Shown here: in pieces, positions 1,313 through 55,983 of the stretch
Layout of the letters: each line of letters starts with the position of its first letter
Position numbering within the stretch: the stretch's first letter is position 1
NCBI GenBank assembly: GCA_964428355.1
Contig: CAYRYU010000004.1
Span: 3,261 to 67,260 of the forward strand
Reading direction: 5' to 3'
Source: an uncultured bacterium
Lineage (GTDB): Bacteria > Muiribacteriota > Ozemobacteria > Ozemobacterales > Ozemobacteraceae
Length of the DNA stretch: 64,000 nt
Translations under genes and position numbers: made by a program
Notes under the pieces: model-generated
Databases searched by the model: none
Seen by the model: only the letters and a program-made list of their open reading frames with translations
Told to the model about the DNA's origin: nothing

Positions 1313-3087
1313 ACATGGAAAGGCCTGCAAGGGTGTTGATCAACTCCATTCCAGTCGAGGTACCCGCCGGAACGACCATCATCGAGGCGGCGGAAAAGGT
1401 GAACGTCATCATCCCCCGCTTCTGCTCCTCGAAGGAGTCTCGGCACAGCGGATCCTGTCGCATCTGCGTCGTCGAGGTGGAAGGGGAGGAGTATCTTCAG
1501 ACCGCATGCAACACGCCGGTTCGGGAGGGAATGGTCGTGACAACGAACTCCCCCCTGGTTCGGAAAACTCGCCGTATGGTTGCCGAGTTGCTGATTTCCG
1601 GTCACCCGGACGACTGCCATTCCTGTACCCGCCTGACTCCCTGCGGACTGAGGAAACTTGCCGCCGAAGTCGGAATCCGGGAGCGGGTTTTTCCCTGGGA
1701 GGGCCAGGGGCGGGCGATCGATGCCTCCCATCCATCGCTTGTCCGGAACCCCGAGAAATGCCTCCTTTGCGGAAAGTGCGTTTTCGTTTGCCGGGAAGTC
1801 CAGACAGTCGATGCGATCGGGTTCGCCGATCGGGGTCGCAACACTGAAGTAGCCTCAGGAGCTCCCAGCGGAATGATCGACTCCCCCTGCGTGGGCTGTG
1901 GACAATGCATCCTGGTTTGTCCTACCGGCGCGCTATCCGACTCGACCGACCCCGATGCCATCTGGAGCGTGCTGGCCGACCAGGGAAAGTTCGTCGTGGC
2001 CCAGGTCGCCCCCTCGACCCGGGCAACCTTGGGGGAGGAGTTCGGGTTCAAGGCGGGGACCAACGTCGCGGGGAAGATCGTCAGCGCCCTTCGCAGGCTC
2101 GGTTTCCGAAAGGTTTTCGATACCACTTTCGCCGCGGACCTCGTCGCGGTGGAGGAGGCCCACGAGCTTCTTGCAAGGCTGGAGAAGTCCTGGGCACAAC
2201 CCGACGGAACCCCGGAAAGCGCTTTCGGTTTGGGCCTTCCTCTCATGACAAGCAGCAGTCCCGCATGGGTCAAATTCTTAGAACATTTCTACCCCTCCCT
2301 GCTTCCCCTGCTTTCTACATGCAAGTCTCCCCAGCAGGTCGCGGGGGCACTCACCAAAACCCATCTCGCGGAGGGCATGGGGATCGACCCCGGGTCGATG
2401 GTGGTCTTTTCGGTAATGCCCTGTACCGCGAAGAAGTTCGAGGCCACGCGTCCCGAGATGGTCGTTTCAGGTATGCGGGAGGTGGATTTCGTCCTCACGA
2501 ACCGCGAACTGGCGCGGCTGATCCGGGAAGCGGGAATCGATTTCGCTAACCTTCCCGAAGAGGATTTCGACGACCCCATGGGCGTCTCATCGGGTGGCGG
2601 CGACATCTTCGGCGTTTCGGGCGGGGTCCTGGAGGCGGCTCTCCGTGTGCTGGCAGGGCTCGTTTCCACCGGGGAGCCGCCCTCTCTGGAGTTCCGCGAA
2701 CTGCGGGGCTTCAAGGACGTCAAAACCGCGATCCTCCAGTTCGAGAACCGTTCTCTCCATGTTGCCGTTGCGAGCGGGCTAGGACCTGCACGCGAGCTCG
2801 TGGAGGGATTGGTTTCCGGGAAGGGGCCGAAGTTCGACTACATCGAAGTGATGGCCTGCCCGGGAGGCTGCATCGGTGGCGGGGGCCAGATCTCGGCGGG
2901 CAACTTCGAGGTCCAGGCAAGAAGGGCCGCGACGCTCTACGCCCAGGATCGGGGAAAACCCGTCCGGAATCCGGCCGATAACCCCTTCATCAAAGCCCTT
3001 TACAAGGATTTCCTGAAAAAGCCCAACAGCCCGAAGGCAGTTTCTCTCCTCCATACCCGTTTCGTGGCCCGAAGCAGAGTCTGGTAA
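1309..3087 (+). CDS. [FeFe]-hydrogenase large-subunit-like protein (HydA / HndD family, M3 domain architecture) with a non-canonical H-cluster L1 motif
   Basis: The N-terminus has a [2Fe-2S] motif (CSSKESRHSGSCRIC), a His-ligated cluster motif (HPDDCHSCTRLTPC) and two ferredoxin-type motifs (CLLCGKCVFVC, CVGCGQCILVCP). The H-domain has L2 MPCTAKKFE and L3 EVMACPGGCIGGGGQ, but L1 reads MTSSSPAW (nt 2248-2262) instead of TSCCPxW. The true start is the ATG at 1309, not the track start at 1195, because it overlaps the upstream stop. Confidence 0.85.
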   Translation: MNMERPARVLINSIPVEVPAGTTIIEAAEKVNVIIPRFCSSKESRHSGSCRICVVEVEGEEYLQTACNTPVREGMVVTTNSPLVRKTRRMVAELLISGHPDDCHSCTRLTPCGLRKLAAEVGIRERVFPWEGQGRAIDASHPSLVRNPEKCLLCGKCVFVCREVQTVDAIGFADRGRNTEVASGAPSGMIDSPCVGCGQCILVCPTGALSDSTDPDAIWSVLADQGKFVVAQVAPSTRATLGEEFGFKAGTNVAGKIVSALRRLGFRKVFDTTFAADLVAVEEAHELLARLEKSWAQPDGTPESAFGLGLPLMTSSSPAWVKFLEHFYPSLLPLLSTCKSPQQVAGALTKTHLAEGMGIDPGSMVVFSVMPCTAKKFEATRPEMVVSGMREVDFVLTNRELARLIREAGIDFANLPEEDFDDPMGVSSGGGDIFGVSGGVLEAALRVLAGLVSTGEPPSLEFRELRGFKDVKTAILQFENRSLHVAVASGLGPARELVEGLVSGKGPKFDYIEVMACPGGCIGGGGQISAGNFEVQARRAATLYAQDRGKPVRNPADNPFIKALYKDFLKKPNSPKAVSLLHTRFVARSRVW

Positions 3088-3127: not shown

Positions 3128-4564
3128 ATGAAAGTCAAGGAAAACGCCGCATCCGTGATCGATCCACCCGCCATCCACGCACTCCTCGGAAGTCTTCCGA
3201 AACCTGATCCCGGTCGGTTCCGCGAAGTCCTGGAGAAGGCTTCCCTCAAGAAAGGCCTTTCACTCGATGAGACCGCGTTTCTTCTCACCCTCACCGACCA
3301 CGAAATGATCCGGGAGATGACGGAGACGGCAGTCCAGGTGAAGGACGCGATCTACGGGAAAAGGCTGGTACTCTTCGCCCCGCTCTATTCGACGAGCCAT
3401 TGCATCAATGACTGCGAATACTGCGGGTTCCGGGTCACGAACGCCTGTCCCAGGCGGAGACTCTCGCTGGAAGAGATCCGCCAGGAGACCGAGGTCCTGA
3501 TCCGGATGGGCCACAAGCGGATCCTTCTGGTTGGCGGCGAAGACCCCGAGCTCTCGGTCGAAACGGTGGCCGCGCAGGTCCGCGCGATCTACGACGTCCG
3601 GATCGGCAGCGGAAACATCCGCCGGATCAACGTCAACATCGCCCCTCAATCCGAAGAGGGTTTCCGGAAGATCAAGGATGCCGGAATCGGCACCTATCAA
3701 TGTTTCCAGGAAACCTACCATCCGGAGACATACGCCCGGCTCCACCTGAGCGGGCCGAAATGCGACTTCGAAAACCGCCTGCGCGTGTTCGAACGCTGCA
3801 TCAAGGCCGGGATCGACGATTTCGGGGTTGGTTTCCTTTTCGGCCTCTACGACCACCGGTATGAGGTTCTCGCCCTGCTTCAACAGACCCGGCATCTGGA
3901 GGCGAATTTCGGGATCGGCCCCCACACCATTTCCATCCCGCGGCTCGAGCCTGCGGAGGGAACCGATTACTACCGTACCACACCTTGGAAAGTCTCGGAC
4001 GAAGAACTCGTCAAGACCACGGCGATACTACGCCTTTCCGTTCCCTATACCGGTATCATTCTCTCCACCCGGGAATCCCCCGAAATGCGGCATCGGCTTC
4101 TTCGCGTCGGTGTTTCGCAGATCAGCGCGGGTTCGATCACAAATCCCGGCGGATATGCCGAGGTTCAGGGGCCCCATCCCTCCGGCGCGGCCGGAGACGG
4201 CGAAGAAAAGGGTGTCGTTCCGCAGTTCGAGGTCCAGGATCACCGCTCTCTCGACGAGATCATCCGAATGGCCTGTGACGAGGGATACATCCCCAGCTTC
4301 TGCACCGGTTGTTACCGGAAGGGCCGCACCGGGGAGGTTTTCCAGCACCTGGCGAAGGACGAGCATATCGGTCCGATGTGTACCGTCAATGCTTTCGCGA
4401 CGCTTCAGGAGTATCTGGAAGACTATGCATCCCAGGAGACCAAGGATGCCGGGACCCGTTGCATCAGGAGATTCCTGGGCGACGAAAAGGATCCCGGGCT
4501 GAAGAACCGGATATCGGAAGGGATCCGTCGGGTCAAGACAGGGGAACGGGATGTCATCGTTTGA
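3128..4564 (+). CDS. hydG: [FeFe]-hydrogenase maturase HydG (radical SAM tyrosine lyase)
   Basis: 478 aa; radical-SAM motif CINDCEYC; C-terminal CTGCYRKGRTGEVFQHLAKDEHIGPMC matches the HydG auxiliary-cluster pattern CX2CX22C. A GAGGGAG RBS sits 6 nt upstream; the gene lies 40 nt after hydA. Confidence 0.9.
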   Translation: MKVKENAASVIDPPAIHALLGSLPKPDPGRFREVLEKASLKKGLSLDETAFLLTLTDHEMIREMTETAVQVKDAIYGKRLVLFAPLYSTSHCINDCEYCGFRVTNACPRRRLSLEEIRQETEVLIRMGHKRILLVGGEDPELSVETVAAQVRAIYDVRIGSGNIRRINVNIAPQSEEGFRKIKDAGIGTYQCFQETYHPETYARLHLSGPKCDFENRLRVFERCIKAGIDDFGVGFLFGLYDHRYEVLALLQQTRHLEANFGIGPHTISIPRLEPAEGTDYYRTTPWKVSDEELVKTTAILRLSVPYTGIILSTRESPEMRHRLLRVGVSQISAGSITNPGGYAEVQGPHPSGAAGDGEEKGVVPQFEVQDHRSLDEIIRMACDEGYIPSFCTGCYRKGRTGEVFQHLAKDEHIGPMCTVNAFATLQEYLEDYASQETKDAGTRCIRRFLGDEKDPGLKNRISEGIRRVKTGERDVIV

Positions 4565-5630
4565 ACCCGACAAGTTGATCGAATCGCTTTCGGCAAGGGT
4601 GTTCCCGACTCCCCCGCAGGCCGCATTCCTGTTTTCCGATGCGTTCGACCCGTGGCGGGGGAAGCTCTTCGCGGCCGCTGACCTTTCCAGGAAGGAACAT
4701 CTGGGAGACGACGTCTTCCTGCGAGGACTGATCGAATTCAGCAGTCACTGCGCGCGGGACTGCGATTATTGCGGCATCTCGACCCACAATCGTCTTGCGG
4801 AACGTTACCGGATGGACCGCAGGCAGATACTCGATTCGATCGGGGCGGCCATCGAGCTGGGATTCCGGTCCTTCGTCCTGCAATCGGGGGAAGATCCGCT
4901 TTTCGGTGCGGGCGAAATCTGCGCCCTGCTATCGGAAATCCGTGGAAAGTACGATGTCGCCGTCACCCTTTCCGCGGGTGAATGGTCGCGGGAGGAGTTC
5001 GCCGAATTCCGGAAGGCCGGGGCCGACCGTTACCTGCTACGGATCGAGACTTCCGACCCGGTTCTGTTCGCCCGCTTCCATCGGGCACGTCCCCGGGGCG
5101 GAGGCTCCGGATCACCCTGGGAGAACCGGTACCGCTGCCTCCAGGACCTACGCGAACTCGGATTCCAGGTGGGGAGCGGAATTCTGGTCGGCCTTCCCGG
5201 CCAGGATGCGGAGAGCCTTCGCCGTGACCTCGAGTTCCTGATCGCCCTGAAACCCGAAATGGTCGGAATCGGCCCGTTCATTCCCCATCCCGAAACCCCT
5301 CTCGCGGGGGAAAAGGGTGGTACGCTCGAATCCTGTTTGACATTCCTCTCCCTGCTCAGGCTTTTCATGCCTGATGCCTATCTTCCGGCAACGACAGCCA
5401 TGGGCACGGTCGATCCCCAGGGGCGCCAGCGGGCTCTAAGGGCCGGGGCAAATGTCCTGATGCCCAATGTCTCTCCCTTGGAGAACCGCCCGAAATACGA
5501 ACTCTATCCCGGGAAGATCTGCCTTTCCGACGATGCCGCGGTCTGCCGCGGATGCGTGGAACGTATGGTCATCTCCATGGGAAGGAAGGTCAACCTCGGG
5601 AAAGGGCACATCGTGAGACATGTCTATTGA
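4551..5630 (+). CDS. hydE: [FeFe]-hydrogenase maturase HydE (radical SAM, biotin-synthase-like)
   Basis: 359 aa; radical-SAM motif CARDCDYC; BioB/HydE-like TIM-barrel core; overlaps the hydG stop by 14 nt. Confidence 0.88.
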   Translation: MSSFEPDKLIESLSARVFPTPPQAAFLFSDAFDPWRGKLFAAADLSRKEHLGDDVFLRGLIEFSSHCARDCDYCGISTHNRLAERYRMDRRQILDSIGAAIELGFRSFVLQSGEDPLFGAGEICALLSEIRGKYDVAVTLSAGEWSREEFAEFRKAGADRYLLRIETSDPVLFARFHRARPRGGGSGSPWENRYRCLQDLRELGFQVGSGILVGLPGQDAESLRRDLEFLIALKPEMVGIGPFIPHPETPLAGEKGGTLESCLTFLSLLRLFMPDAYLPATTAMGTVDPQGRQRALRAGANVLMPNVSPLENRPKYELYPGKICLSDDAAVCRGCVERMVISMGRKVNLGKGHIVRHVY

Positions 5631-7032
5631 AAATGGTGAAACCTCCTTTCGCCGCGAAAAGGACTTCCTTGGAGAGAGGGAAGTCCCGGCGGGAGCTTAT
5701 TTCGGAATCCATTCCCTGAGGGCTTCCGAAAACTTCGCGCTTTCACCGCCCGGGGGGCCGGCTGGAAGGCTCTGCGCAGGAATGATCAAAGCGCTTGGCG
5801 TGGTGAAGAAAGCCGCCGCCGCCGCCAACCTGGCCATCGGGGAGATCCCGGGGGAGAAGGCGGAAGCGATCTTTCGGGCGTGCCAGGAAGTCATCGACGG
5901 AAAGCTCGACGGGCATTTCGTCGTCCATCCGCTTCAGGGCGGGGCGGGGACGGCATCCAACATGAACGTCAACGAAGTCGTCGCAAACCGGGCGAACGAA
6001 CTTTTGGGTTTCCCTCTCGGGTCTTACTCACCCGTCCATCACCTGGACGATGTCAACCGTTCCCAGAGCACGAACGACGTCTTCCCCACCGCGCTCCGGA
6101 TCGCCGCCATCTGGAGTCTGAGGGAACTGGTCGGGGAGATCGCCCGCTTCCAGGAAACCCTCCAGGCGAAGGAGGCCCAGTTCTCCAAAATACTCAAGAT
6201 CGGACGGACCCAGCTCCAGGACGCGGTTCCGATAACGCTCGGGGAGGAGTTTTCCGCTTACGCGGAGGCGATCTCCCGGGATCGCTGGCGTCTTTATCGT
6301 GTCGAAGAGCGGTTGCGGGTCGTGAATGCGGGCGGAACCGCGATCGGGACAGGGATAACAGCGTCCAGGGGGTTCCAGGCGGAGTTCATACGGATCCTTC
6401 GGGAAGAGAGCGGAATCGGTCTCGCACGGGCGGAGAATCTGGTCGAGGCCACCCAGAACGCGGATGTGTTCGTCGAGGTATCGGGCCTTCTTAAGCCTCT
6501 GGCGGTCACCCTGGGAAAGCTCGCTGGAGACCTGCGATTGCTGGCGTCCGGGCCCCATGCGGGTCTCGGGGAGATCCGTCTTCCCGCGGTCCAGGAGGGA
6601 AGCAGCATAATGCCGGGGAAGGTCAACCCCGTGATGTGCGAAATGATCGGTCAGATCGCAATGAAGGTATACGGTAACGATCAGATCATCACCCATGCCG
6701 CGGAGTCGGGGCAGCTCGAGCTGAATGCCTTCCTTCCGGTCATCATGGATTCCCTGCTCGGTTCCCTCGGGCTTCTGAAATCCGGAATCGCGCTTTTTCG
6801 GGAGAAATGCGTCTCCGGGCTGGAAGCCAACGAGAACCGGTGCCGGGACAACCTTCGGGGTTCACTCGGGGTTCTGACGGTCCTTGCGAAAAAGCTCGGC
6901 CACGCAACGACATCCGAGGTCTATCTGAGGCACCTCGAGACAGGACGGCCCATCGACCTCATCCTTGTCGAAGGGGGGTTCGCCACCCCGGGGGAGATCG
7001 AGGAGGCCCTGACCTCCTTCCGCGCCCGATAG
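5620..7032 (+). CDS. Aspartate ammonia-lyase / class II fumarase family protein embedded in the hyd maturation operon
   Basis: 470 aa; family signature GSSIMPGKVNP and the conserved TNDVFPT / QSTND region; overlaps the hydE stop by 11 nt. Confidence 0.85.
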   Translation: MSIENGETSFRREKDFLGEREVPAGAYFGIHSLRASENFALSPPGGPAGRLCAGMIKALGVVKKAAAAANLAIGEIPGEKAEAIFRACQEVIDGKLDGHFVVHPLQGGAGTASNMNVNEVVANRANELLGFPLGSYSPVHHLDDVNRSQSTNDVFPTALRIAAIWSLRELVGEIARFQETLQAKEAQFSKILKIGRTQLQDAVPITLGEEFSAYAEAISRDRWRLYRVEERLRVVNAGGTAIGTGITASRGFQAEFIRILREESGIGLARAENLVEATQNADVFVEVSGLLKPLAVTLGKLAGDLRLLASGPHAGLGEIRLPAVQEGSSIMPGKVNPVMCEMIGQIAMKVYGNDQIITHAAESGQLELNAFLPVIMDSLLGSLGLLKSGIALFREKCVSGLEANENRCRDNLRGSLGVLTVLAKKLGHATTSEVYLRHLETGRPIDLILVEGGFATPGEIEEALTSFRAR

Positions 7033-7059
7033 GGGAACGAGGATCCCGAAAGCGGGGTA

Positions 7060-7140
7060 GCCACAGAGGCACAGAGACCCAGAGGAAGTCCCAAACCGTA
7101 AAAGGTTCTCGGGTGTGGCCTCTTCTTCTCTGTGGTCTCC
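7060..7140. repeat. Small imperfect inverted-repeat element built from CACAGAG / CTCTGTG units (copy 1), between convergent genes
   Basis: gccacagaggcacagagacccagagg (about 7060-7085) and its inverse ctctgtggtctc (about 7128-7140) lie in the 155-nt gap between the aspartase-like gene (+) and sppA (-). The same motif recurs at 12.1-12.2 kb. Confidence 0.5.
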
Positions 7141-7187
7141 GAGGCTCGGTGGCTTTCCTGGTCTCCCAGAAATGGGCTTTGGGGAGG

Positions 7188-8219
7188 TCAGTTGGAGGCG
7201 GGTTTCAGCTGGAAGAGCAGTTTCGGGGTTCCGCCTTCGGAAAGGATCTCCTTGAGGCCTTCGAGCATGGCCGGAACGCCGGAGCGGGCTTCCATGAGAT
7301 CCGTAAGCAGGCTCTGGATGCCCTTCCTTGCCTTTCGCTTGACCAGTTTGGCGGTGTCGATTTTCGCGAGCTCCCGGATCTTGGCCAGGGCATCCTCCCG
7401 GTATCCGATTCCGTCGATGAGTCCGTTCGTAAGCGCCTGGGAAGCCGTGTAGATGCTTCCGTCGGCGAGTTTCGTGATGTCGGAAACGGGTTTCCCGCGA
7501 TTCTTCGAGACGATTTCCAGGAACCGGTCCTGGAGTGCATCGATGATCGAAAGAAGCATGGTGCGTTCCTCCGGGGTCATTTCCCGGAAGGGGGAGAGGA
7601 CGTCCTTCTTCGGGGTGCGATCCGATTTCAGCATGATGGACCTGTACCCCACGAGCTGGGCTAGCTTCTCGAGATTGGCGGCCTGCATCAGGACGCCGAT
7701 GCTTCCCACGACGCTGGTGGGGTGCGCCATGATCTTGGTAGCCGCGCAGGAAACGTAGTATGCCCCCGAGCAGCCCATGCTTCCGATGAGGGCAACGATG
7801 GGTTTGTCTTTCTCGGTAATCTTTCCGAGCTTGTGATGGATTATGTCGCTGGCGGTGACCTCACCCCCGGGGGAATCGACCTCGAGCAGGACCGCCTTGA
7901 CCTCGGGGCGCTCCAGTGCGCACTCGACGTCCTTGCGGATGGCTTCCATCGGATCCTTACGGACCTCGAACGCGTACCGGTCGGAATCATCGGCTTCCTG
8001 GATGACACCGCTGATCTTGATCAGGAGGATTTCGTTCTGGGCTTCCTTGTCGCCCTCCACGAACTCGACCTTGTGTTTTGCATCCTTCGAAGGGGCGGCT
8101 CCCATGGTGTCGAGAAGATCGAAAAGGGAGGCGGCGGAAGCTGTTTCGAGCGGCAGCGAAGCGGAAACGAGCAGTGTGGCAAGAAAAAGGGTGGCAAGAA
8201 AACCTGGTCTCATGGTCAC
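7188..8219 (-). CDS. sppA: Signal peptide peptidase SppA (S49 family, 36K type)
   Basis: 343 aa; N-terminal signal peptide (LFLATLLVSASLP); ClpP/crotonase-fold S49 core (GSMGCSGAYYV, catalytic Ser/Lys region). Confidence 0.75.
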   Translation of the reverse strand: MTMRPGFLATLFLATLLVSASLPLETASAASLFDLLDTMGAAPSKDAKHKVEFVEGDKEAQNEILLIKISGVIQEADDSDRYAFEVRKDPMEAIRKDVECALERPEVKAVLLEVDSPGGEVTASDIIHHKLGKITEKDKPIVALIGSMGCSGAYYVSCAATKIMAHPTSVVGSIGVLMQAANLEKLAQLVGYRSIMLKSDRTPKKDVLSPFREMTPEERTMLLSIIDALQDRFLEIVSKNRGKPVSDITKLADGSIYTASQALTNGLIDGIGYREDALAKIRELAKIDTAKLVKRKARKGIQSLLTDLMEARSGVPAMLEGLKEILSEGGTPKLLFQLKPASN

Positions 8220-8249
8220 CTCCGAATGGTGGATTTCACCTTTTCATTT

Positions 8250-9347
8250 TCACCGGTTCCATTCGGGAGTTTCATCCCGGTCGGGGCAACCCCTCGAGTG
8301 GAACCTGCATCGATTGCAGAGAAGGCACGGATTCACCGGCGTCGAGTCCAGGCCCCGGGCTTTCCGGACCCATTGGCGGTCCCTTATCAGGACGCGGCCA
8401 AGGGCGATGAAATCTGCGTCCCGGTTCTGGAGGATGTCGAACGCCATCTGCGGATACTGGATCTTTCCGACGACGGCGACGGGGATCGAAACCGCTTCCT
8501 TTATGTCTCTGGCGTCGTCGCGGAAGACCCCGGGAGGGGTGGTCGGGCCCACGATCGACTCGGGGCCATGCAACGAAGCATACATCCCTCCGGAAACATG
8601 AATCAGGTCGACTCCGGCTCCTTCAAGGGCTTTTGCCATGGTGACCGACTTCGCCAGGGTCAGCCCCCGGGGGAGGTAATCCCTGACCGACATCCTGTAG
8701 GAGATGGCCAGGTCTGGAAATGAGGAACGGATTGCGCTGACGACTTCCAGCGGGAAACGGTTGGTTCCGTCCGGTTCGAGTCGGTACTCGTCGTCGCGAT
8801 GATTCGTCAGGGGGGAAAGGAATTCGTGAAGAAGATATCCATGTGCCCCGTGGAGCTCGATTCCGGCAAATCCGGCTTCCCATGCGATCCCTGCGGCATC
8901 ACGGAACTTCCCGACGAGGTCCCGGATGTCGAGGATGCTCAGGGGTCTGACCGGCCGGTCGAGAACGGGGCATGGAATGGCCGACGGGGCAACGACCTCG
9001 AGGTTATCCCGGGAGGGAAGACCCTGTCGTCCTGCATGGTGAAGCTGGAGGAAGGGGACCACTCCGAGTTCCCTGATCGTTTCCGCGATCTGGGAGAGTC
9101 CATCCCGGGCCTCGGGGCCAGTGGCATCCAGCTCCCTCGACCAGCCCCGTCCTTCCTGCGAGACGAGGGAACCCTCCACGATTACCATTCCCACTCCGGT
9201 CAATGCCATGTGCTTGTAATACGAAAGCATGACGGGGGTGATCCGTCCGTTCTTGTCCGCGAACTGGGTGGCCAGGGGGGCGAACAGAATCCGGTTCCGA
9301 AGGGTCAGATGTCGTATCTTCCCCGGTTCGAAGGGGTTTGGAGACAT
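8250..9347 (-). CDS. Old Yellow Enzyme-family NADH:flavin oxidoreductase with C-terminal Cys cluster
   Basis: 365 aa from the ATG at 9347 (MSPNPFEPGK). OYE/FadH-type TIM-barrel motifs are present (HGAHGYLLHEFLSP, PLATQ). The C-terminus carries CLLCNRCRFHSRGCP (CxxCxxC-x5-C). The track ORF continues to 10649, but that upstream part is Arg/Pro-rich and overlaps a good + strand gene. Confidence 0.8.
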   Translation of the reverse strand: MSPNPFEPGKIRHLTLRNRILFAPLATQFADKNGRITPVMLSYYKHMALTGVGMVIVEGSLVSQEGRGWSRELDATGPEARDGLSQIAETIRELGVVPFLQLHHAGRQGLPSRDNLEVVAPSAIPCPVLDRPVRPLSILDIRDLVGKFRDAAGIAWEAGFAGIELHGAHGYLLHEFLSPLTNHRDDEYRLEPDGTNRFPLEVVSAIRSSFPDLAISYRMSVRDYLPRGLTLAKSVTMAKALEGAGVDLIHVSGGMYASLHGPESIVGPTTPPGVFRDDARDIKEAVSIPVAVVGKIQYPQMAFDILQNRDADFIALGRVLIRDRQWVRKARGLDSTPVNPCLLCNRCRFHSRGCPDRDETPEWNR

Positions 9348-9440
9348 GCTCCGATGATACCCATCCCGCCTCTCCCGGTCAAGGAGGATCGCAAAAAGGT
9401 GATGCCGATGTAGGTGGGGATGTGGTAAAATGGCCCGGAA

Positions 9441-10346
9441 ATGGACCGCTTGCCAGAATTCCCGTCCCAGACCGGATTGACCTTCGACCACAGGGATGCG
9501 GTTTTTACCTGTCTCGGTGCTTCGGGCATCGATTCCTCCGATTTCGCATTCTACAATCTCATGGGTTGGTACCGAACGCGTCCGGCAATGATTTCCAGGC
9601 TCGAGGGCAGGCTGCTTCTGTCGGTTGAAGGGCCTGAAGGGAACCAGCTTTTCCTTCCCCCGATCGGCGAGCCTCCTCTCGGGCCGGCACTCAAGAAGCT
9701 TCTTTCCTTGCTCCCGAAGTTCAACCAACCCCCCGTGCTTTCCTATTTCCCCGAGTCCATGGTCGAGGACGTGCGCCGGAGCTTCCCCGCGGCAGAGGTT
9801 TTGGCCCAGGAGAAGGATTTCGATTACATCTACCGGCTCCAGGAACTTGCGCTTCTGGCGGGTCGTAAATTCCACCAGAAGAAGAACTTCGTGAACCGGG
9901 TATTGGAAGAGGAGAAGCCCGAGGTCGAATTCATCAACGAGTCGAACCTGGACGAGACATTCCAGTTCCTCGACGCCTGGTACCGCGCCCATCCCCCCGG
10001 AGACCCCAACATGGAGATCGAATCCCTCGCGGCGAAACGGCTGCTTCCATTCCTCAAGGCCCTTTCCGGACTCGGGATTCTGGTGCGTATTCAAGGCCGC
10101 CTGGTCGGGTTTTCGATCGCCTGCCCCGTCCATTCGACGTGTTGGGTTGTTCCCCTGGAAAAAGCTGATCGATCGGTGAAAGGCTTGTACCAGTTCGTCA
10201 ACTGGGCATTGGCGAATCGTCTTCCCGAATTCGTGGTCCTGCTCAACAGGGAGACCGACCTGGGGATAGAGGGACTGCGAACCGCCAAGCAGAGTTACCA
10301 TCCGGTCAAGCTCGAGAAGAAATTTGAGATCAGGTTTCCGGCTTGA
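9441..10346 (+). CDS. DUF2156-like protein (resembles the C-terminal aminoacyl-transferase domain of MprF/LysX)
   Basis: 301 aa with balanced composition and no signal peptide; recognised by overall resemblance to the DUF2156 family. Family assignment is from memory of that domain, not from a search. Confidence 0.55.
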   Translation: MDRLPEFPSQTGLTFDHRDAVFTCLGASGIDSSDFAFYNLMGWYRTRPAMISRLEGRLLLSVEGPEGNQLFLPPIGEPPLGPALKKLLSLLPKFNQPPVLSYFPESMVEDVRRSFPAAEVLAQEKDFDYIYRLQELALLAGRKFHQKKNFVNRVLEEEKPEVEFINESNLDETFQFLDAWYRAHPPGDPNMEIESLAAKRLLPFLKALSGLGILVRIQGRLVGFSIACPVHSTCWVVPLEKADRSVKGLYQFVNWALANRLPEFVVLLNRETDLGIEGLRTAKQSYHPVKLEKKFEIRFPA

Positions 10347-10356
10347 GGTGTCGAAG

Positions 10357-10935
10357 ATGACGTTTGCGCGATCCATTCCCCGCCTTTGGGCAGGGGCGGT
10401 TTTCCTGCTCGCGGCCGTCATCTTTCTTTTCGGTTGCGGATCGGAGCATACGAACCCCCTTCCCGTGACCTCATATGGCGGAGCGCCCCCGGAGCAGGAA
10501 AGCGCAATGGTCGAACTCGATGCGAAAGGCTTCCTGAACGGCGAGCTGACCGGGGCGGTTTCCGTTCCCCAGTATGCGAGCACATACCCCGTCTCATACA
10601 CCGGCTCATGGACTCCGATACTTGCCGGAGCGAAAACCGGATGGTACATGATGTTCTCGGACTCGCCGGGGGCCCGGGTGGACGTTGTGGCAACGGTCTC
10701 GAGGGTGGTCTTCGATTTCTGGGATTACGAGATGTACCAGGGTGCCGGGGTTGTCAGTTTCTACCTGGACGGCGCCTTTCTCGGAAGCGCCTCACTCGTC
10801 GGAAAGAATGCGGCAGGCCAGAAGTTCATGGATTACCAGGTGGTGACGGGGAAAACGACGGTTTCCACGATCACGATGAAGCTCGATTCGGGAAACGCGG
10901 TCTTGACCGGCTTCGTGCTCATCTTCCCCAAATGA
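10357..10935 (+). CDS. Hypothetical lipoprotein
   Basis: The ATG at 10357 gives MTFARSIPRLWAGAVFLLAAVIFLFGCGS, a signal peptide with an LFGC lipobox. The track start at 10324 is a TTG inside the upstream gene's stop region. Confidence 0.55.
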   Translation: MTFARSIPRLWAGAVFLLAAVIFLFGCGSEHTNPLPVTSYGGAPPEQESAMVELDAKGFLNGELTGAVSVPQYASTYPVSYTGSWTPILAGAKTGWYMMFSDSPGARVDVVATVSRVVFDFWDYEMYQGAGVVSFYLDGAFLGSASLVGKNAAGQKFMDYQVVTGKTTVSTITMKLDSGNAVLTGFVLIFPK

Positions 10936-27132: not shown

Positions 27133-28995
27133 ATGGGATATTCAGTCGAAGAAGTGATCGCCCTCCTCGACTCGGCGGACCATTCGACGAAGGCCTTCGC
27201 GCTCCAGTTCCTGATCAGGAACCTTTCCCTGACGGGGGATACCAAGGTCAGGGAGAAGGTCGACCTCCTGCTCCGCGACGATGATGTCACCATCCGCTTC
27301 TGGGCACGCAAGCTCGCCGAATGCTGTGAGCGTCTGGAGCGCAAGGAGGAGGAACTATCCCAGGGAAAACCTGCGGCTTATGGTGACGAGCTTCCGGCCG
27401 CCCTGGCGCCTGGAGACCTGGACCGGCTCTTCTCCGACCTCGTGAAGGCGGCCACCGGGAAGGACGGAGTCGAGATCCTCAAGGAGATCCTGACGCATGA
27501 TTCCCCAGGCCTCTCCGCGCGCCTCGTCGAATACCTGAAGGGTTGCCGGGATGTCGTGCAGGTTTCCTTTCTGACGAAACAGATCGGCCTGCGTTATCCT
27601 TCCCCCGAAACCCTGGTTGCCCTGGCCCCCTACCTCACCCACGAGGACGATCGCGTTGTCGCGAACACCATCGAAGGGATCGAAACTTCCGAGGATCCCA
27701 AGGTCGTCGCCCTCTTCGCCCAGCTCCTGAACCACCGGAGCCACCGCGTCAGGGGAAACGCGGCCCAGGCCATATCCAGATTCGATCCTGAGGCCGCCAG
27801 AGGCGTGGTTTCGAAGATGATTGGCATGCGGGAGCGACCGAACTTCGTAATCGCCGCCTGTCACGCCGCCAAGCAGATGAAGGACCGGTCCTTTCTTCCC
27901 GCCCTCCTGGCGTTGACCGATGACACCTGGGCTTCCGAGGAAGCGACCGGGGCTATCCTTGCCCTGGTTGTCGATGACGCATTTTCCGAAATGGAAAAGC
28001 TGCTCAAATCGCGGCCCCTCGATGTCCGTGCGGATTCCCTCCTGAAAACGCTTTGCGAGCGAGCCGAAGCGATCCGGAAGGGCTTCTCGAAACCCGATCC
28101 GGGTTTGAAATCATCGGGGGCTGGGGAACCGGGAAACCCGAACCAGGGCCTCTTCGGCCAGGACCGGGACGAAAACCGGATCTTCGATTTCCAGGTCCTC
28201 GAAAGAAAGATATTGGCGCTCGAGGAAGCGATCAACCTCGAGCAGGGTCAGGCGATGGCCCTCGAAAACCGCATCGAAGCCTTCGGACTTTTCTCCCGGA
28301 TCATCTACAGGCCACAGGAAAGCGAGATTTCCCTCATCTACTCCGAGACCAGATACGAACCTTTCTGGGACGTCCGTTTCCGGACCTTCATCGATTATTC
28401 CCGGCTGCGGGAGGCCGTCCTTCCAACCGACAAGCCTGTCGCGGAAGTGAAGATCGGCGGGCAGATAATCAAGGCCACGGATGGGAAGGTCAGGCTCAGC
28501 CTGGGGGAGCACTGTTCCGAGGAGAGCTGCCACGAGGTTTTCATCGACGCGTGTTCCGGAAAACGGGTCGACCTTTCGGTTCATGCAGCGAACCCGAAGC
28601 ACGAGATCGGGACTCCCGAGGAACTGCACGTAGCCGACTTGATTGTCCTTCCCGCAAAAGTGAAGGCCTCGGTGATCATGCGTGAGCTTCTTGCCGAGTT
28701 CGTGAAACCCGTAAAAGCCGATGAGATCAACGGTGAGAAGATCACGATCGAGCGGTTGAACCTGATGTTCAGGCCGATACACGCCTTCGAGTTCCAGTGG
28801 GGGCAGAAAACGGCTGTTCTGGAGATCGATGCGCTGACCGGTGCGATTTCCGCCGGCCGCGCCGTTAAGGAGCGGTTCCAGGCCGTATTCTCCACCGATA
28901 AGCTTTTCGAAATCGGATCGGAAGTCTTCGGGTTGGTGGTTCCCGGAGGGGAGATCGCCCTGAGACTTGCCCGCGCAGTAATGAAAAAGGGTTGA
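27133..28995 (+). CDS. HEAT-repeat (PBS-lyase-type) protein with unknown C-terminal domain; first gene of the phosphatase operon
   Basis: 620 aa. The N-terminal ~300 aa consist of HEAT-like repeats (VRGNAAQAISRF..., DDRVVANTIEGI...). The C-terminal half has no recognisable motif. The stop overlaps the start of the next gene. Confidence 0.7.
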   Translation: MGYSVEEVIALLDSADHSTKAFALQFLIRNLSLTGDTKVREKVDLLLRDDDVTIRFWARKLAECCERLERKEEELSQGKPAAYGDELPAALAPGDLDRLFSDLVKAATGKDGVEILKEILTHDSPGLSARLVEYLKGCRDVVQVSFLTKQIGLRYPSPETLVALAPYLTHEDDRVVANTIEGIETSEDPKVVALFAQLLNHRSHRVRGNAAQAISRFDPEAARGVVSKMIGMRERPNFVIAACHAAKQMKDRSFLPALLALTDDTWASEEATGAILALVVDDAFSEMEKLLKSRPLDVRADSLLKTLCERAEAIRKGFSKPDPGLKSSGAGEPGNPNQGLFGQDRDENRIFDFQVLERKILALEEAINLEQGQAMALENRIEAFGLFSRIIYRPQESEISLIYSETRYEPFWDVRFRTFIDYSRLREAVLPTDKPVAEVKIGGQIIKATDGKVRLSLGEHCSEESCHEVFIDACSGKRVDLSVHAANPKHEIGTPEELHVADLIVLPAKVKASVIMRELLAEFVKPVKADEINGEKITIERLNLMFRPIHAFEFQWGQKTAVLEIDALTGAISAGRAVKERFQAVFSTDKLFEIGSEVFGLVVPGGEIALRLARAVMKKG

Positions 28996-31799
28996 GGCCC
29001 GATTCCTTGGGCGGCTCCTTCCGAAACTGGGTCCTGATCGTCCTGTTTTTCGTCGCTTTGCCCGGCTTTTTCGCGGATCGGGCATTGACCATCCTCCGGG
29101 ACGAGTCGAACCGGAAGGAGCGGGAGGAACTCTTCCAGGATATGGAAGACGTCCTTCACCGGATCCTCCGGAGGGGTGCGCCGGAGTTTTCGGTGAAAGC
29201 CCTGGTCGACCGGGCATTCAAATACGGCCGTTCCGAAAAACTGCTTCTGCAGCTTCTCGAGCGGCTCCAAAAGTCGTATCGAAATCAATGGGAGTTCTTC
29301 CTTTTCGACCGGTCTGGAAAACCAGTTCCCTTCGGGGGAAGTCTTCCCGACAAGATTTCCGCCCGCCAGAGGGTTTTCCGGGCTCTCCTGGAAGCGAAGT
29401 TCGGGGGAAAGACTCCGTCCAAGACCGATGAGAAGCTCTCCCAGCAGATTCTTGGCGACAAATCCGCGATACTGAATCTTGCCAAAAGCCGGGGACACCT
29501 CCGGAAGCTGGGAAGCCCGATCCGTTACTCTTTCGGTGGTCTCTGGGAGATTCCCGGCGGCGGAAGCAGGAAGTTCCTTCTGGTCATGGTCCGGAAAGAT
29601 GGTTTCCCCTCTTTGCAACTTCTGAAGCAGGCCGTCAAAGTCGCGGGGGAAAAATGCCGGAAATTCTTCGACCTCACCCTGGTGGGAGATGAGCGAAGTC
29701 CGTCATTTGCGAAGCTTCCGGAGGAGGTCCGGGAAGTCCTGGCGGGTTCCAGTGCAAGGCAGGACGTTTTCGTCCGTGGAGCTTTCCAGGGCGCTTTCCT
29801 TGCCTGCCAGGGGGGAATGACCGCCCTGGCCTCGAACCGGAACCCCCTTTCGGCTGGGAAAACCATGGACGATCTTCGGGTCCTCGTGTGCGGGCTGGGG
29901 ATGTTCTTCGCTCTGGTCCTTATGAAACTGGTCGTGATAGGGAATCCGACCGAGATCTCCCTGCGCTGGGCGATACCCTTTCTCATCCTCGGCGCGACAC
30001 TTCCCGCCCTTGGTTACCTCGGAATGAGCATGACCGAACAACGGAAGCGGGTCCTCGAAAAGGAAACCTACGAAGCCCATCGGAATCTCGAAAACAGCCT
30101 GGTAAGGATCGACCAGGGCTTCTACCGTGAACTGGAAACATTGGCCCAGAAATACCAGGAAATCCTTGCCGAATTCTGCCAAAACCCCCTCACCCTGGGT
30201 ATGGAATCCGGTTCTGCGTCCGCTGTCCCCGAAATTGCCCGGGAAGCCTACATCTTCGATCAGGACGGTAAGATATCCCGGACGCTGAAATCGAATGCCG
30301 ATCACCCGGCCGATTCGAAGGCCCTTGCGGGGGGGTTCGTGGCGAAACTGACCGATGCCGTGTACGGAAGGGCTCCGATCGAGACTTTCGAGGATCCGAT
30401 CCTCCCTCACTACCTCAAACACCTGGGCTGGTTCACCGAGATCAAGCTGCTTGACGAGTACCTTTCGCAGTTCGTCGAAATGAGACCCGTTCCCCAGACG
30501 GGAGGGATGCTCGGAATCTTCGTGAGCCATCTCCTCCCCAAGCTCGTCCGTCTCCACCTCCGGAAAGTGCTGAGGAACCCTGCGGACCGTGGAAACGCCC
30601 CGTTCGCAATCGTGGCCTTCGATGGGGAAACCCTGCTGGGCTCGATCCCGCGTTCTTTCCTTCGAAACCCAGACGGAATGCGCATTGCCGAAAGGGTTCT
30701 CCAGACCGGGAAAGCCGTTGACGGGACGATTCTCAACCCCACCGGGCAGCGGCTGCTCCTGACCGCTTTTCCCGGTCGCAGGCTGGACGGGTTCATCCTG
30801 GTTGCCGGAAGCGACCCGGAACCCCTCAACCTGGGAGACCATCTCCTTGTTGACTGGACCTGGAAAACCGCTGGGGTTCTCATCCTGATCGCGTTTTTTT
30901 CCGCGGGTTTCCTCGTCAGGAAGATCCTGGGGGCGCTGAGGGTTCTCACGGGAGGAATCGACCGGATCCGTTCGAAGGATTTCCTGATGGAACTGCCTTT
31001 GGAGGGGACCGACGAGTTCGCGCAGCTCGCCAGGGGAATAGAAAAGGCGGGAGTGACGCTCGAGGAGATATTTTCGTCCCTTCCAGTCCAGGAAACGCTG
31101 GTCCGATGCGAGCCGTTCAAACACCCAAACATCCGGACCGGGAGCATCTTCTTCCCCTGCGAAGAGCCGGGGGGTGACTTCCTGGACGGGTTCCCGACTT
31201 CCGATGGGAAGTTCCTGTTCGCGATAGGCGATGTCCTGGGGGAAGGATGGCAGACGACCCTGGTGACAGCGGCCATACGGATGGGCCTGCGTGTTTTCGC
31301 CGAACGCGGATTCGCCTCTCTTACAGATCTTGGTCACCGATTGAACCGGCATTTCATAGGTTTCCGGGGTTCGAACCGCCGGATGACGATCCTCCTGGGA
31401 CTTCTCGACCCTGACAATGGTGATCTGGAGTGCGTGGGGGGAGGCCATTGCCTTCCGATCCTGCTCGGGCGGGACGGCCCAGCCTGGCTCCCTCGGGCGG
31501 GACTTCCACTCGGTTCGACCGGAAAGAAGGCCATGGAGGCATTTTCCCGGCGCCTTTCACCCGGCGACTCGCTGCTGTTGTACACCGACGGATGGGCGAA
31601 AACCTCCAATCCCGCTTCCGAACCACTGGGTTACGAAAGGTTTCTTCGGATCGCGGGGGATTTGAAAGGAACATCCCCTGATGAGAAGCTTCTGGACCTG
31701 GAAAAAGGGATCATCGAATCGGGGTTTTCAAAATCCCCTGAAGATGATAGGTCGGCCCTCCTCATCTCCTTTGGTAGGGAAAGGGAGGGTGGGAAATGA
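28992..31799 (+). CDS. Membrane sensor with HAMP and PP2C-type (SpoIIE / RsbU family) phosphatase domain; phosphatase signature degenerate
   Basis: 935 aa with N-terminal TM, large periplasmic region, second TM block and a HAMP-like segment. The C-terminal PP2C domain has GGDFLD, TILLGLLDPDNG, GGGHCLPILL and LLLYTDGW, but IGDVLGEG where canonical enzymes have GDVSG(H/K)G. Confidence 0.8.
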   Translation: MRPDSLGGSFRNWVLIVLFFVALPGFFADRALTILRDESNRKEREELFQDMEDVLHRILRRGAPEFSVKALVDRAFKYGRSEKLLLQLLERLQKSYRNQWEFFLFDRSGKPVPFGGSLPDKISARQRVFRALLEAKFGGKTPSKTDEKLSQQILGDKSAILNLAKSRGHLRKLGSPIRYSFGGLWEIPGGGSRKFLLVMVRKDGFPSLQLLKQAVKVAGEKCRKFFDLTLVGDERSPSFAKLPEEVREVLAGSSARQDVFVRGAFQGAFLACQGGMTALASNRNPLSAGKTMDDLRVLVCGLGMFFALVLMKLVVIGNPTEISLRWAIPFLILGATLPALGYLGMSMTEQRKRVLEKETYEAHRNLENSLVRIDQGFYRELETLAQKYQEILAEFCQNPLTLGMESGSASAVPEIAREAYIFDQDGKISRTLKSNADHPADSKALAGGFVAKLTDAVYGRAPIETFEDPILPHYLKHLGWFTEIKLLDEYLSQFVEMRPVPQTGGMLGIFVSHLLPKLVRLHLRKVLRNPADRGNAPFAIVAFDGETLLGSIPRSFLRNPDGMRIAERVLQTGKAVDGTILNPTGQRLLLTAFPGRRLDGFILVAGSDPEPLNLGDHLLVDWTWKTAGVLILIAFFSAGFLVRKILGALRVLTGGIDRIRSKDFLMELPLEGTDEFAQLARGIEKAGVTLEEIFSSLPVQETLVRCEPFKHPNIRTGSIFFPCEEPGGDFLDGFPTSDGKFLFAIGDVLGEGWQTTLVTAAIRMGLRVFAERGFASLTDLGHRLNRHFIGFRGSNRRMTILLGLLDPDNGDLECVGGGHCLPILLGRDGPAWLPRAGLPLGSTGKKAMEAFSRRLSPGDSLLLYTDGWAKTSNPASEPLGYERFLRIAGDLKGTSPDEKLLDLEKGIIESGFSKSPEDDRSALLISFGREREGGK

Positions 31800-34700: not shown

Positions 34701-34861
34701 AGATCCCGGGTTATGGGGGGGTGAAGGAGTTTTTGGATTCGGTGGAATCGAGAGACCCGCTGGTGGTTGTGCCCGCCGTGATCGAGTTCGCCCGCGGGTT
34801 TTCCCAGGGTGTCCCCTTCCAGGACGACCTCACCGTTCTTGTACTGAATCGCCTCGGATGA
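31796..34861 (+). CDS. Membrane sensor with HAMP and canonical PP2C-type (SpoIIE family) phosphatase domain
   Basis: 1021 aa, start overlapping the upstream stop (ATGA). Two TM blocks and a HAMP-like linker. The PP2C motifs are GGDYFDM, VVGDVSGHGLSAA, TYTNAGHNFPYL and LLILYSDGITE. It is a paralog of the preceding gene. Confidence 0.85.
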   Translation: MTRGLAGEPRNRWGLPAWFLLVILFWLPFEFLLMNGLHRSHEALVEGADGIVRNLLRGKILEFRYLLQAENALSARMKVAVEVARTSGSPEEWFGRVKGALGDFPAGSFELLLTNGREVIPVTPGWDPATLSHFLGITIEKAECFSNTTLAAAYLRKHISDAEFFGVERFSKWKWIPLPGKQGFPNQVFDRNWLPDTVFTIYRTPRNTWGAFGRVGEEGWTYLIRFHRQNLPEGFLLGISDQAARERGIPVTREGFGPPVPEESKPGWLSEIHEAISGRGVSLREFDEKAGWLVGRGRIPRSLWAFLILAHIANFFLSIAALGGVFRLLQGESYDRLAVSRKVFLGLLGGAGLPLVFALIATEGATGARIFREIQKSQLEMDQSLRLIESEFEKFTQEIGQDHREDAKGIEYPWDPVRGERWVDQMSTRHEVISQIEVISSAGVRLTARGPFSWSCYRASRLPREPREEHFRRWSRRGFLFLKEDLDMLSLDDPGQPSPTSDKLFRLVTELAKNNPKMIKLRLIEVLGKRVCAAVNGIGDTGSEESSGGGDALIEVAFKGRDAEFFQDILVSLGLLKPVQFGMFRGLSFSDVVRDKTGRAQFFVVIFHRVSDLTEKFLYQVGSRRLFPDRYSFLGISMFYAKVDFGGGLEESRRLMVEDLFTEIGQNFHGILPDEEGYPRLFAISRGRGTPDYTLALSLPMAEIARSIIQERRLQISFLLFLLLALIGISWWLRRLLLKPLGNLQTLVNAMVNGTYEGLRIEPGIGELGTLAGLFADTLDGIRQMDMARIIQDQLLPSAPVEAGGFRMAGKSLMMSQVGGDYFDMIPRGKDRLLLVVGDVSGHGLSAAIIVAMMKSGLTALAETDLEPNDILQLINGVMFKTLARKKMMTVFLGSLDVIGGRFTYTNAGHNFPYLRQQYGDGTFLKQANLPLGAVVTRKYKVDSIVLGKGDLLILYSDGITEVVNPAGKIPGYGGVKEFLDSVESRDPLVVVPAVIEFARGFSQGVPFQDDLTVLVLNRLG

Positions 34862-34953
34862 CCGGGGCCAAAAATGAACGCGGCCGTGACCAACTTCGAC
34901 TGGTCAGGGCCGCGAGAAACTGACAGGGTGCTCTTTGAAAGGTCCGCTTTTCG

Positions 34954-35454
34954 CTATTTTGGCTTGCGGACTGCGACGGCGAAGAATCCCGGGGCGGTGT
35001 GGTCACGATCACGGAAATAGGCTTTTCCATCCCAGAATTCCACATAGTATGATTTGTCCGAAGGGGGTTCGCATGCGTCGGCCCAGGCGGATTCATCCCC
35101 GATGGGAGAGTTTGATTGGACTTCCTTGTACAGCTCCTGAAGGTCCTGTCTGGTGGGAATATCCCAACCATCATCGAGACTCAATATCCACTTCACTGAA
35201 TCGTCCCAGGAGATGCAGTTGCTTCCCACACACCATTCTCTTCCGGCGGCCTGGAAGGTCCTCACGGGCATTTCAAAGGCACCGGCGTTGTTCGAGCTCC
35301 TGACCGCTTCATTATCCAAAGTCTGCACGGTTTGTTCCACGGCAGTCTGGTTTTCCCCGTATTCCGGGGTGTTCTGCCCAAAAGCCATCCCATTTCCGAA
35401 CAATCCAAGGACCAACAGGAAGTATAGACACCCTGAAATCACCTTGCTGTTCAT
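34954..35454 (-). CDS. Secreted DUF1566 (Lcl C-terminal domain)-like protein
   Basis: ATG at 35454 with GGAGGG just upstream; signal peptide MNSKVISGCLYFLLVLGLFGNGMA. DUF1566 signature DDGWDIPTRQDLQELY. Confidence 0.55.
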   Translation of the reverse strand: MNSKVISGCLYFLLVLGLFGNGMAFGQNTPEYGENQTAVEQTVQTLDNEAVRSSNNAGAFEMPVRTFQAAGREWCVGSNCISWDDSVKWILSLDDGWDIPTRQDLQELYKEVQSNSPIGDESAWADACEPPSDKSYYVEFWDGKAYFRDRDHTAPGFFAVAVRKPK

Positions 35455-35671
35455 ATTCCCTCCGCCTTCTTTGTCCTTAAGGACAGGTTTCTTCAAGTTC
35501 TCACATTATTGAAAACGTCCGAGTCGGCAGGGGTGTTGAAGTTTTCGCGAAGGGTGGAAATTTTCCCCCCGGGCCGGTGTATCCCGCCCGTGATGGTGGA
35601 GATTGAGGGAAATGAAGCATTCCCGCTTCAACCGGGCGTCAGAAAGGTGGGAAGTGTCGCTTTCGGGGCCC

Positions 35672-37747: not shown

Positions 37748-37795
37748 TTCGAAGAGCCTCCCGGTCAATTCAGAGCACGGCCCCATTTAATATTG

Positions 37796-55970: not shown

Positions 55971-55983
55971 TCTTTCGCTCCCT

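Follow-up and report, generated by a model that had tools for sequence, protein, structure and literature searches.

The cysteine that relays protons to the H-cluster is considered a near-universal feature of catalytic group-A [FeFe]-hydrogenases, and the variant with serine in its place is one of the main laboratory means of capturing the hydride state and of making the case that the pKa of the proton donor sets catalytic bias. Here we describe a gene in which this serine occurs naturally, the hydA gene of a 64,000-nucleotide stretch of DNA (hereafter the window; contig CAYRYU010000004.1, positions 3,261 to 67,260, GenBank assembly GCA_964428355.1) from an uncultured bacterium of the Ozemobacteraceae. 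Its product, the catalytic subunit of an [FeFe]-hydrogenase (HydA), is a rare natural counterpart of a mutant well studied in the laboratory, and no cluster ligand has been lost from it.

The engineered Cys-to-Ser relay variants still take up the H-cluster, their reduced and hydride states (Hhyd/Hsred) are stabilised, and their H-cluster potentials move positive (PMC9563086). Relative to the wild type, H2 oxidation and H2 evolution were 14% and 1.3% in CpII C169S, 16% (extrapolated from CpI C299S) and 0.05% in CaI C298S, and 0.004% and 0.002% in CrHydA1 C169S; CpI C299S evolved H2 at 0.03%, its oxidation being not determined (PMC9563086, Table 2). The ratio of oxidation to evolution rose by as much as 260-fold in such variants (PMC9563086). 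All four share with the window HydA a Cys-to-Ser exchange at the relay in a group-A pocket; they are, however, laboratory mutants of TSCCP enzymes, whereas the change in HydA is natural and population-fixed and is accompanied by a second serine at the cubane-ligand position.

Among natural enzymes, HydA1 of A. woodii and T. kivui (7q4v/7q4w, 8a6t; NF040763) has the same M3 domain order as the window HydA and 43-44% full-length identity to it. In A. woodii HydA1, Ser301 stands for the Cys ligand of the H-cluster cubane, the vibrational (Fourier-transform infrared) signature is apparently unaffected, and the enzyme is active (Katsyv et al., PMC10021017). The window HydA likewise has Ser at this position (Cys300 of the Clostridium pasteurianum enzyme CpI), and the two are alike in L2, L3, the proton pathway, the Met/Lys pocket and their NuoE/NuoF-type partners; it differs from HydA1 in its Ser relay and in a 13-residue insertion before L1. 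The non-bifurcating, NADH-dependent S. wolfei Hyd1ABC and S. aciditrophicus HydAB have in common a NuoE/NuoF-like module with fewer iron-sulphur (FeS) domains and no GGPSG (PMC7311640). The HydS proteins of groups C and D (TmHydS, TamHydS) resemble the window HydA in having no relay Cys, for which slow turnover is expected; unlike it, they are also without all other proton-path residues and Met353/Met497, and have a C-terminal four-Cys cluster and, in group C, a PAS domain (PMC8163306).

Loop L1 and the proton path

The preliminary description of this DNA had reported that both Cys positions of L1 are occupied by Ser (TSSSP, 2245-2265) and that L2 and L3 are intact, and re-reading of the codons confirmed it on both counts. 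In the phmmer alignment, Ser316 and Ser317 match Cys299 and Cys300 of CpI gap-free, between the conserved P-x-x-T-S and P-x-W; the L1 equivalent lies at 2245-2265 itself. Where the classical loop reads TSC[CS]PxW with its relay Cys, HydA reads TSSSPAW. L2 (VMPCTAKKFE) and L3 (EVMACPGGCIGGGGQ) follow the patterns MPCxxKxxE and ExMxCxxGCxxGGGQ with all three Cys ligands, and the hmmalign read-out of the active site, 'EERS MPCK MCC', contains the whole group-A proton pathway together with the Met353, Met497 and Lys358 equivalents.

The two serines differed markedly in how usual they are among homologues. The 120 best matches to HydA in a 5.8-billion-protein collection, the window protein included, read TSCSP in 111 cases, TSCCP in 5, SSCSP in 3 (the three closest homologues) and TSSSP in 1, the query itself, and the relay position is Cys in all 119 others. 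A further 96 HydA genes in 80 GTDB loci gave the same picture, with L1 reading TSCSP (82), TSCCP (7), SSCSP (6) or SSCCP (1) and a relay Cys in 96/96. The nearest database homologue of HydA is 57% identical, and its best match among GTDB genomes 47-48%. TSCCP, against which the loop had originally been judged, is thus not the relevant reference, since the closest family is overwhelmingly TSCSP (111/120 and 82/96). Nor does the original picture of two anomalous substitutions that remove a cluster ligand hold, Ser at the Cys300 position being documented in the active A. woodii HydABC (PMC10021017), whose HydA1 (7q4v) reads TSCSP in L1 by phmmer alignment. Ser at the Cys300 position is thus the ordinary state of HydA's clade and is compatible with full activity. 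HydA accordingly has one unusual residue rather than two, and the true anomaly is Ser316 at the proton-relay position alone. The early suggestion of an enzyme with Ser ligation survives for the second position, where Ser317 would by homology serve as the fourth cubane ligand, as in A. woodii HydA1; the relay position is a separate anomaly.

Greater variety was found in a more diverse set, the 150 best matches obtained when 1.84 billion 50%-identity representatives were searched exhaustively with HMMER. The relay position was Cys in 128 of these, Ser in 7 and another residue in 14, and the ligand position was Cys in 116 and Ser in 31. The representatives without a relay Cys were all missing at least one of the equivalents of CpI Glu279, Glu282, Met353, Lys358 and Met497 (P0237, in which L1 is gapped, was unscored), whereas the window HydA, also without a relay Cys, retains all of them. 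At the codon level the window reads ACA AGC AGC AGT CCC where the sister gene of a Candidatus Riflebacteria contig reads TCG AGC TGC AGC CCC, so that the relay codon (TGC to AGC) is one T>A change from the state of the sister clade.

The insertion SWAQPDGTPESAF was found in the window HydA alone, being absent from the 64 other sequences of our larger alignment (A4) and from the 9 others of the smaller one (A1). In the AlphaFold2 model the predicted local distance difference test (pLDDT) falls below 50 at residues 300-307 within the insertion, which fits a flexible loop.

A further residue, Cys338 (STCKSPQ, window 2320-2322), takes the place of CpI Ala321 and does not vary within the A6-like clade. 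It was considered as a compensating ligand for TSCSP enzymes and rejected: since it is invariant whether L1 reads TSCSP or TSCCP, it does not covary with the Ser ligand. No compensating Cys specific to the window HydA was seen anywhere in the protein when it was compared with its aligned homologues.

Independent assemblies and integrity of the gene

The codons AGC AGC AGT are identical in Logan assemblies of two other runs, SRR12133404 (contig L001, 3.1 kb) and SRR12133403 (contig L082, 14.1 kb), which were assembled independently and were located through the window's NuoF-like and HydG proteins, HydA itself having given no exact match in the contig index. Within 3,058 bp of L001 there is 1 difference from the window, and within 12,217 bp of L082 there are 4, at other positions, which makes three haplotypes in all. 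A sequencing or assembly error with TGC as the true codon might be suspected, as the three codons form a short trinucleotide-like run one base away from TGC; however, independent assemblies share these codons while differing from the window elsewhere, and the L1 serines are therefore not an artefact. We attach practically no credence to an error. In all three haplotypes, which come from at least two runs, the relay serine is fixed.

The five single-nucleotide polymorphisms (SNPs) that separate the haplotypes are all synonymous, falling at K72, E172 and A174 of the NuoF-like gene, at C200 of hydA and in the hydA stop codon (TAA>TGA, 3086). At columns conserved in at least 95% of the other 64 homologues, the window HydA deviates 14 times and its Cys-bearing sisters 14, 12 and 9 times, and the deviations of the window protein are mostly conservative (L>F, R>K, E>D, A>S and similar). 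Relaxed selection on the conserved columns was thus considered and set aside, there being no excess over the sister proteins, and hydA contains neither frameshifts nor stops. Because the SNPs are all synonymous, the operon is intact and coupled, and conserved columns carry no excess of substitutions, hydA shows no sign of pseudogenisation, though the SNP sample is small.

Family placement of HydA

HydA carries the Pfam domains Fer2_4, NADH-G_4Fe-4S_3, Fer4 (the two-[4Fe-4S] ferredoxin), Fe_hyd_lg_C (278 bits) and Fe_hyd_SSU (63 bits). Its domains, ligand columns and structural superposition agree on the M3 layout of [2Fe-2S], His-ligated [4Fe-4S], two [4Fe-4S] and the H-domain; the Cys/His ligand columns of the [2Fe-2S], the His-ligated [4Fe-4S] and both ferredoxin-type [4Fe-4S] clusters are all kept in alignments A1 (window HydA and 9 others) and A4 (window HydA and 64 others), which bears out the earlier statement that the accessory-cluster domains are present. 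The top matches among solved structures in phmmer searches of PDB sequences were T. kivui HydA1 (E 1e-161) and HydA1 of A. woodii HydABC (E 1e-157), with CpI ranking behind them at about 1e-116. The AlphaFold2 model, built on the 65 sequences of A4 (64 homologues and the window protein), reached a mean pLDDT of 89.8 and a predicted template modelling (pTM) score of 0.89, and superposed on 8a6t_A and 7q4w_A with template modelling (TM) scores of 0.92-0.96.

Scores against family models were consistent with this. TIGR02512 ([FeFe] hydrogenase group A) gave 439.8 bits against a cutoff of 405.95, and the best-scoring family, the exception-level model NF040763 (group A6), gave 722.8 bits, which is just below its cutoff of 765; the Cys-bearing sister from Riflebacteria (P0003) likewise stays under that cutoff (719.8 vs 765). 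The placement of HydA in the TSCSP ('A6', A. woodii HydA1-like) lineage of NuoE/NuoF-linked three-subunit group-A [FeFe]-hydrogenases is largely shown. HydA is structurally a HydA1 of the A. woodii/T. kivui type and would work like it, and the classical definition of L1 fails in it at one residue.

The annotated hydA start (ATG at 1309) overlaps the stop of the nuoF-like gene and has a GGAG merely 1 nt upstream. An ATG at 1315 has a more usual Shine-Dalgarno spacing of 7 nt, and because of this better spacing the start may lie there, in which case the HydA N-terminus would be two residues shorter.

Operon and partner subunits

The window and the upstream extension provided by L082 together show an operon in the order nuoE-like, nuoF-like, hydA, hydG, hydE and aspartate ammonia-lyase-like gene (Table 1). 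The genes overlap or nearly abut, and the nuoE-like, nuoF-like and hydA genes stand in a row on L082, as expected of a HydABC-type enzyme. The direct adjacency of hydG and hydE, also noted in the preliminary description, stands with both products above the cutoffs of TIGR03955 and TIGR03956.

Table 1. Positions of the hydrogenase operon genes and of active-site features in HydA (window numbering unless another contig is named).
Feature	Position	Strand	Basis or remark
NuoE-like, 164 aa	L082 1419-1913, just upstream of window		
NuoF-like flavoprotein subunit (HydB-like), 435 aa	5..1312	+	Pfam Complex1_51K, SLBB, NADH_4Fe-4S
hydA, M3-type [FeFe]-hydrogenase catalytic subunit, 592 aa	1309..3087	+	Pfam, PDB matches, AlphaFold2
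Proton-pathway helix segment EAHELLAR; Glu283, Glu286, Arg290 = CpI Glu279, Glu282, Arg286	2155..2178	+	invariant columns, A1 and A4
13-residue insertion SWAQPDGTPESAF, residues 294-306, between proton-pathway helix and L1	2188..2226	+	alignments, AlphaFold2
L1 motif MTSSSPA(W), Cys-free H-cluster loop	2245..2265	+	ATG ACA AGC AGC AGT CCC GCA
Ser316, AGC, proton-relay position (CpI Cys299, CrHydA1 Cys169)	2254..2256	+	Cys in all other close homologues inspected
Ser317, AGT, [4Fe-4S]H ligand position (CpI Cys300)	2257..2259	+	Ser is the clade's usual state
Ser336 = CpI Ser319, fourth proton-pathway residue	2314-2316	+	hmmalign read-out
L2 VMPCTAKKFE, intact; Met370, Cys372, Lys375 = CpI Met353, Cys355, Lys358	2413..2442	+	
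L3 EVMACPGGCIGGGGQ, intact; Met515, Cys517, Cys521 = CpI Met497, Cys499, Cys503	2845..2889	+	
hydG, radical-SAM H-cluster maturase	3128..4564	+	TIGR03955 equivalog, 459 bits vs cutoff 312
hydE, radical-SAM H-cluster maturase, overlaps hydG end	4551..5630	+	TIGR03956 equivalog, 367 bits vs cutoff 255
Aspartate ammonia-lyase-like gene	5620..7032	+	NF008909, 596 bits vs cutoff 510

The NuoF-like subunit, which scored 332 bits with TIGR01959 and thus remained under its cutoff, consists of the flavin mononucleotide (FMN)/NADH domain and the N3 [4Fe-4S] domain only, with no extra N- or C-terminal FeS domains. Bifurcating and non-bifurcating NADH-dependent enzymes are told apart by the FeS domains and the GGPSG of the beta subunit (Losey et al., PMC7311640). 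The features of an electron-bifurcating HydB, namely an extra N-terminal [2Fe-2S], C-terminal 2x[4Fe-4S] and GGPSG, are absent from the window subunit, in which PCGVSSG occupies the stretch equivalent to GGPSG; it is short in comparison with the bifurcating HydB of the A. woodii/T. kivui type. Because this HydB is short and has neither the extra FeS domains nor GGPSG, the enzyme would be of the non-bifurcating NADH-dependent type by those criteria, and would most likely pass electrons between H2 and NAD(H) with no bifurcation to ferredoxin. The likeness to the S. wolfei Hyd1ABC/S. aciditrophicus HydAB type is drawn from these two sequence criteria only.

Ammonia-lyases are known to provide the dithiomethylamine bridge with its nitrogen and to be associated with hyd operons (PMC11736057), and by analogy the product of the aspartate ammonia-lyase-like gene is a likely ammonium donor for that bridge. 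The same six-gene order recurs on the Candidatus Riflebacteria contig L083, whose HydA (P0003) has SSCSP in L1. Identities between the window and this operon are 40% for NuoE, 43% for NuoF, 56% for HydA, 62% for HydG, 64% for HydE and 70% for the lyase, which is the most conserved gene of the operon. Another close HydA homologue is annotated from Candidatus Ozemobacter, so that the nearest relatives of HydA come from Candidatus Riflebacteria/Ozemobacter. No second hydA and no hydF was found within the 64-kb window or the 1.9 kb upstream of it.

Natural relay-serine clades

Metagenome contigs of the Joint Genome Institute (JGI) were scanned with the pattern T-S-Ser(TCN)-[S/C]-P-[G/A]-W..E..YP, which takes in TCN-encoded relay serines only, the window's own codon being of the AGY type. 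The scan returned 33 loci, against an estimated 0.2 or so expected by chance, and 32 of the 33 are real HydA homologues. All but one of these 32 (within L085-L117; representative P0165) form one clade with TSSCPAW in L1, SSCSAAK in L2 and EVMACPDGC in L3; the odd one, L096, encodes a different, M2-type protein. On contig L088 the TSSCPAW HydA (5858-7582) follows HydC and a long HydB that does contain GGPSG, and the next gene (7583-9601) encodes a histidine kinase in fusion with a HydS-like hydrogenase domain.

In a second clade the conserved L1 reads SSSSPAW and is free of Cys. This clade comprises P0151 and P0273-P0312, about 35 clusters with 61-77% mutual identity, including candidate division KSB3, and M353T, K358E and M497K are present throughout, amounting to a Lys/Met charge swap about the 2Fe site. 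One of its HydA genes (L118, 9001-10761) adjoins a gene for a 631-aa NuoF-like protein. Maturase genes were not seen beside the operons of either clade in the two operons examined (L088 and L118).

Both clades share with the window an M3-type HydA homologue, a relay Ser and NuoF-like neighbours, and the SSSSPAW clade is, like the window HydA, without any Cys in L1. They are, however, merely about 40% identical to the window HydA, and the pockets of both are remodelled (SSCSAAK in L2, E279Q and E282L with TSSCPAW; M353T, K358E and M497K with SSSSPAW) whereas that of the window HydA is canonical. Neither clade signature (SSCSAAK, or TPCxxE with K.C..C) occurs in the window protein, which has MPCTAKK and M.C..C instead. 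HydA reached its Cys-free L1 independently and in an otherwise canonical pocket. No relevant paper on TSSSP, TSSCP or SSSSP in a hydrogenase context was found in the searchable open literature, nor any on the two run accessions.

Other features of the window

Several features outside the operon were recorded. At 42195-48821 (-) lies the gene for a protein of 2,208 aa in which HAMP and adenylate/guanylate cyclase domains are repeated, and a similar giant protein is encoded directly beside the sister hyd operon (L083, 16214-21743, -). Three large genes at 28992-37786 end in SpoIIE (PP2C-type phosphatase) domains, and one of them (35672-37786, -) adds PAS and GAF sensor domains. A five-gene run at 54726-61654 (-) resembles reductive pyrimidine catabolism; it encodes a dihydropyrimidine dehydrogenase-like pair (a DHO_dh protein with 2x[4Fe-4S] and a Fer4_20 protein with Pyr_redox_2) and continues with an aldehyde dehydrogenase, a class-III aminotransferase and an amidohydrolase. 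At 8250-10649 (-) a mechanical open reading frame of 799 aa is much longer than the real Old-Yellow-Enzyme-type gene within it: the Oxidored_FMN domain occupies residues 440-764, and on L082 a gene of 365 aa is called.

Discussion

We favour, with somewhat better than even confidence, a reading in which HydA is an H-cluster-bearing, NADH-linked, non-bifurcating hydrogenase that uses a serine hydroxyl as its proton relay and is slow and biased towards H2 oxidation. In this enzyme Cys372, Cys517, Cys521 and Ser317 would ligate the [4Fe-4S] part of the H-cluster in the manner of A. woodii HydA1. One T>A substitution has turned the relay Cys beside the dithiomethylamine nitrogen into Ser316, with Glu283, Glu286, Arg290, Ser336, Met370, Lys375 and Met515 remaining canonical. 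To judge from the laboratory Cys-to-Ser variants, the co-encoded maturases would still assemble the H-cluster, and protons would enter and leave the amine via the Ser hydroxyl. Because this hydroxyl is far more basic than a thiol, turnover would be much slower, that of H2 evolution most of all, with a strong shift to H2 oxidation and stabilised reduced and hydride states. Electrons would presumably pass along the FeS chain to FMN and on to NAD+ on the NuoF-like subunit.

Several points weigh against this reading. The substitution is confined to one lineage with its nearest homologue at the distance given above, and for that reason conservation of Ser316 across species cannot be shown, nor can the change be dated. 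The SNP argument consists of five sites, of which hydA contributes one sense codon and, at 3086, the stop codon. Neither hydF nor another hydA was seen in the stretch, and it may be for another hydrogenase that the maturases are retained, which would weaken the argument from synteny. CrHydA1 C169S is nearly dead even as an oxidiser of H2, so that by analogy the function of HydA is not assured, least of all with a Ser-ligated cubane. The assignment as NADH-linked and non-bifurcating is likewise a matter of sequence criteria.

The main rival is a crippled gene, in which drift or hitch-hiking fixed a (near-)inactivating Cys-to-Ser change in a single small lineage and hydA is heading for loss, or is kept as an electron-transfer module while other hydrogenases do the work. 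The single-nucleotide step from a family-invariant Cys, the restriction to one lineage, and the loss of 84% to >99.99% of activity in the laboratory Cys-to-Ser variants (PMC9563086) would all suit it, as would the several HydA genes that are common in Riflebacteria genomes (L028, L057, L058, L078); moreover, the natural relay-Cys-less clades have remodelled their pockets and the window HydA has not, as expected of a recent, uncompensated hit. Against it, the frame is unbroken, conserved columns have changed no more than in the Cys-bearing sisters, all five population SNPs are silent, every cluster ligand and proton-path residue is in place, and the maturase-containing operon is intact and translationally coupled. 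We regard a crippled gene as unlikely, though by no means negligible.

The pocket also bears on two explanations in which the relay serine has another role. If the 13-residue insertion or some other residue were a new relay and Ser316 a spectator, the unique insertion and its place between the Glu283/Glu286/Arg290 helix and L1 would be accounted for. Yet the prediction for the insertion is a disordered loop at the surface, HydA has no window-specific Cys, and every residue of the canonical pathway is still there, an argument for continued use of the old proton route; a new route is improbable. An H2 sensor or regulator, in which loss of the relay Cys makes a slow H2-binding signalling module, would recall the HydS proteins of groups C and D, which are also slow and without Cys299 (PMC8163306), and the stabilisation of reduced and hydride states by Cys-to-Ser exchange (PMC9563086) would serve such a role. 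The sensory paralog proposed as one option in the preliminary description nevertheless finds no support in the protein or its surroundings: HydA has no PAS, kinase or C-terminal Cx2Cx4Cx16C cluster domain, and it keeps the full group-A proton pathway and the Met353, Met497 and Lys358 equivalents, so that, the relay Cys apart, none of the losses or replacements that mark HydS is found in it. Its NuoE/NuoF-like redox partners are co-encoded, no regulator gene adjoins, and Cys-bearing sisters share the same operon. We consider a sensory role highly improbable.

A bolder form of the favoured reading would see in HydA a natural, catalytically competent group-A enzyme with a Cys-free L1, a Ser ligand and a Ser relay that was selected as a near-unidirectional H2-oxidising (or hydride-stabilising) NAD-linked catalyst, possibly helped by the 13-residue loop where the proton path opens. 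We hold this to be possible but on balance doubtful. If it is true, HydA is nature's own C169S/C299S 'bias switch'.

For the family as a whole, the consensus of the very large HydABC-type clade is TSCSP and not TSCCP, and motif screens that demand two Cys therefore mis-flag thousands of normal enzymes. The survey has also brought to light two sizeable natural relay-Ser clades, TSSCPAW and SSSSPAW. A natural enzyme with a relay Ser in an untouched pocket and with its own maturases would test whether evolution uses the bias switch, and HydA would also show how a Ser relay works together with a cubane ligated by Ser.

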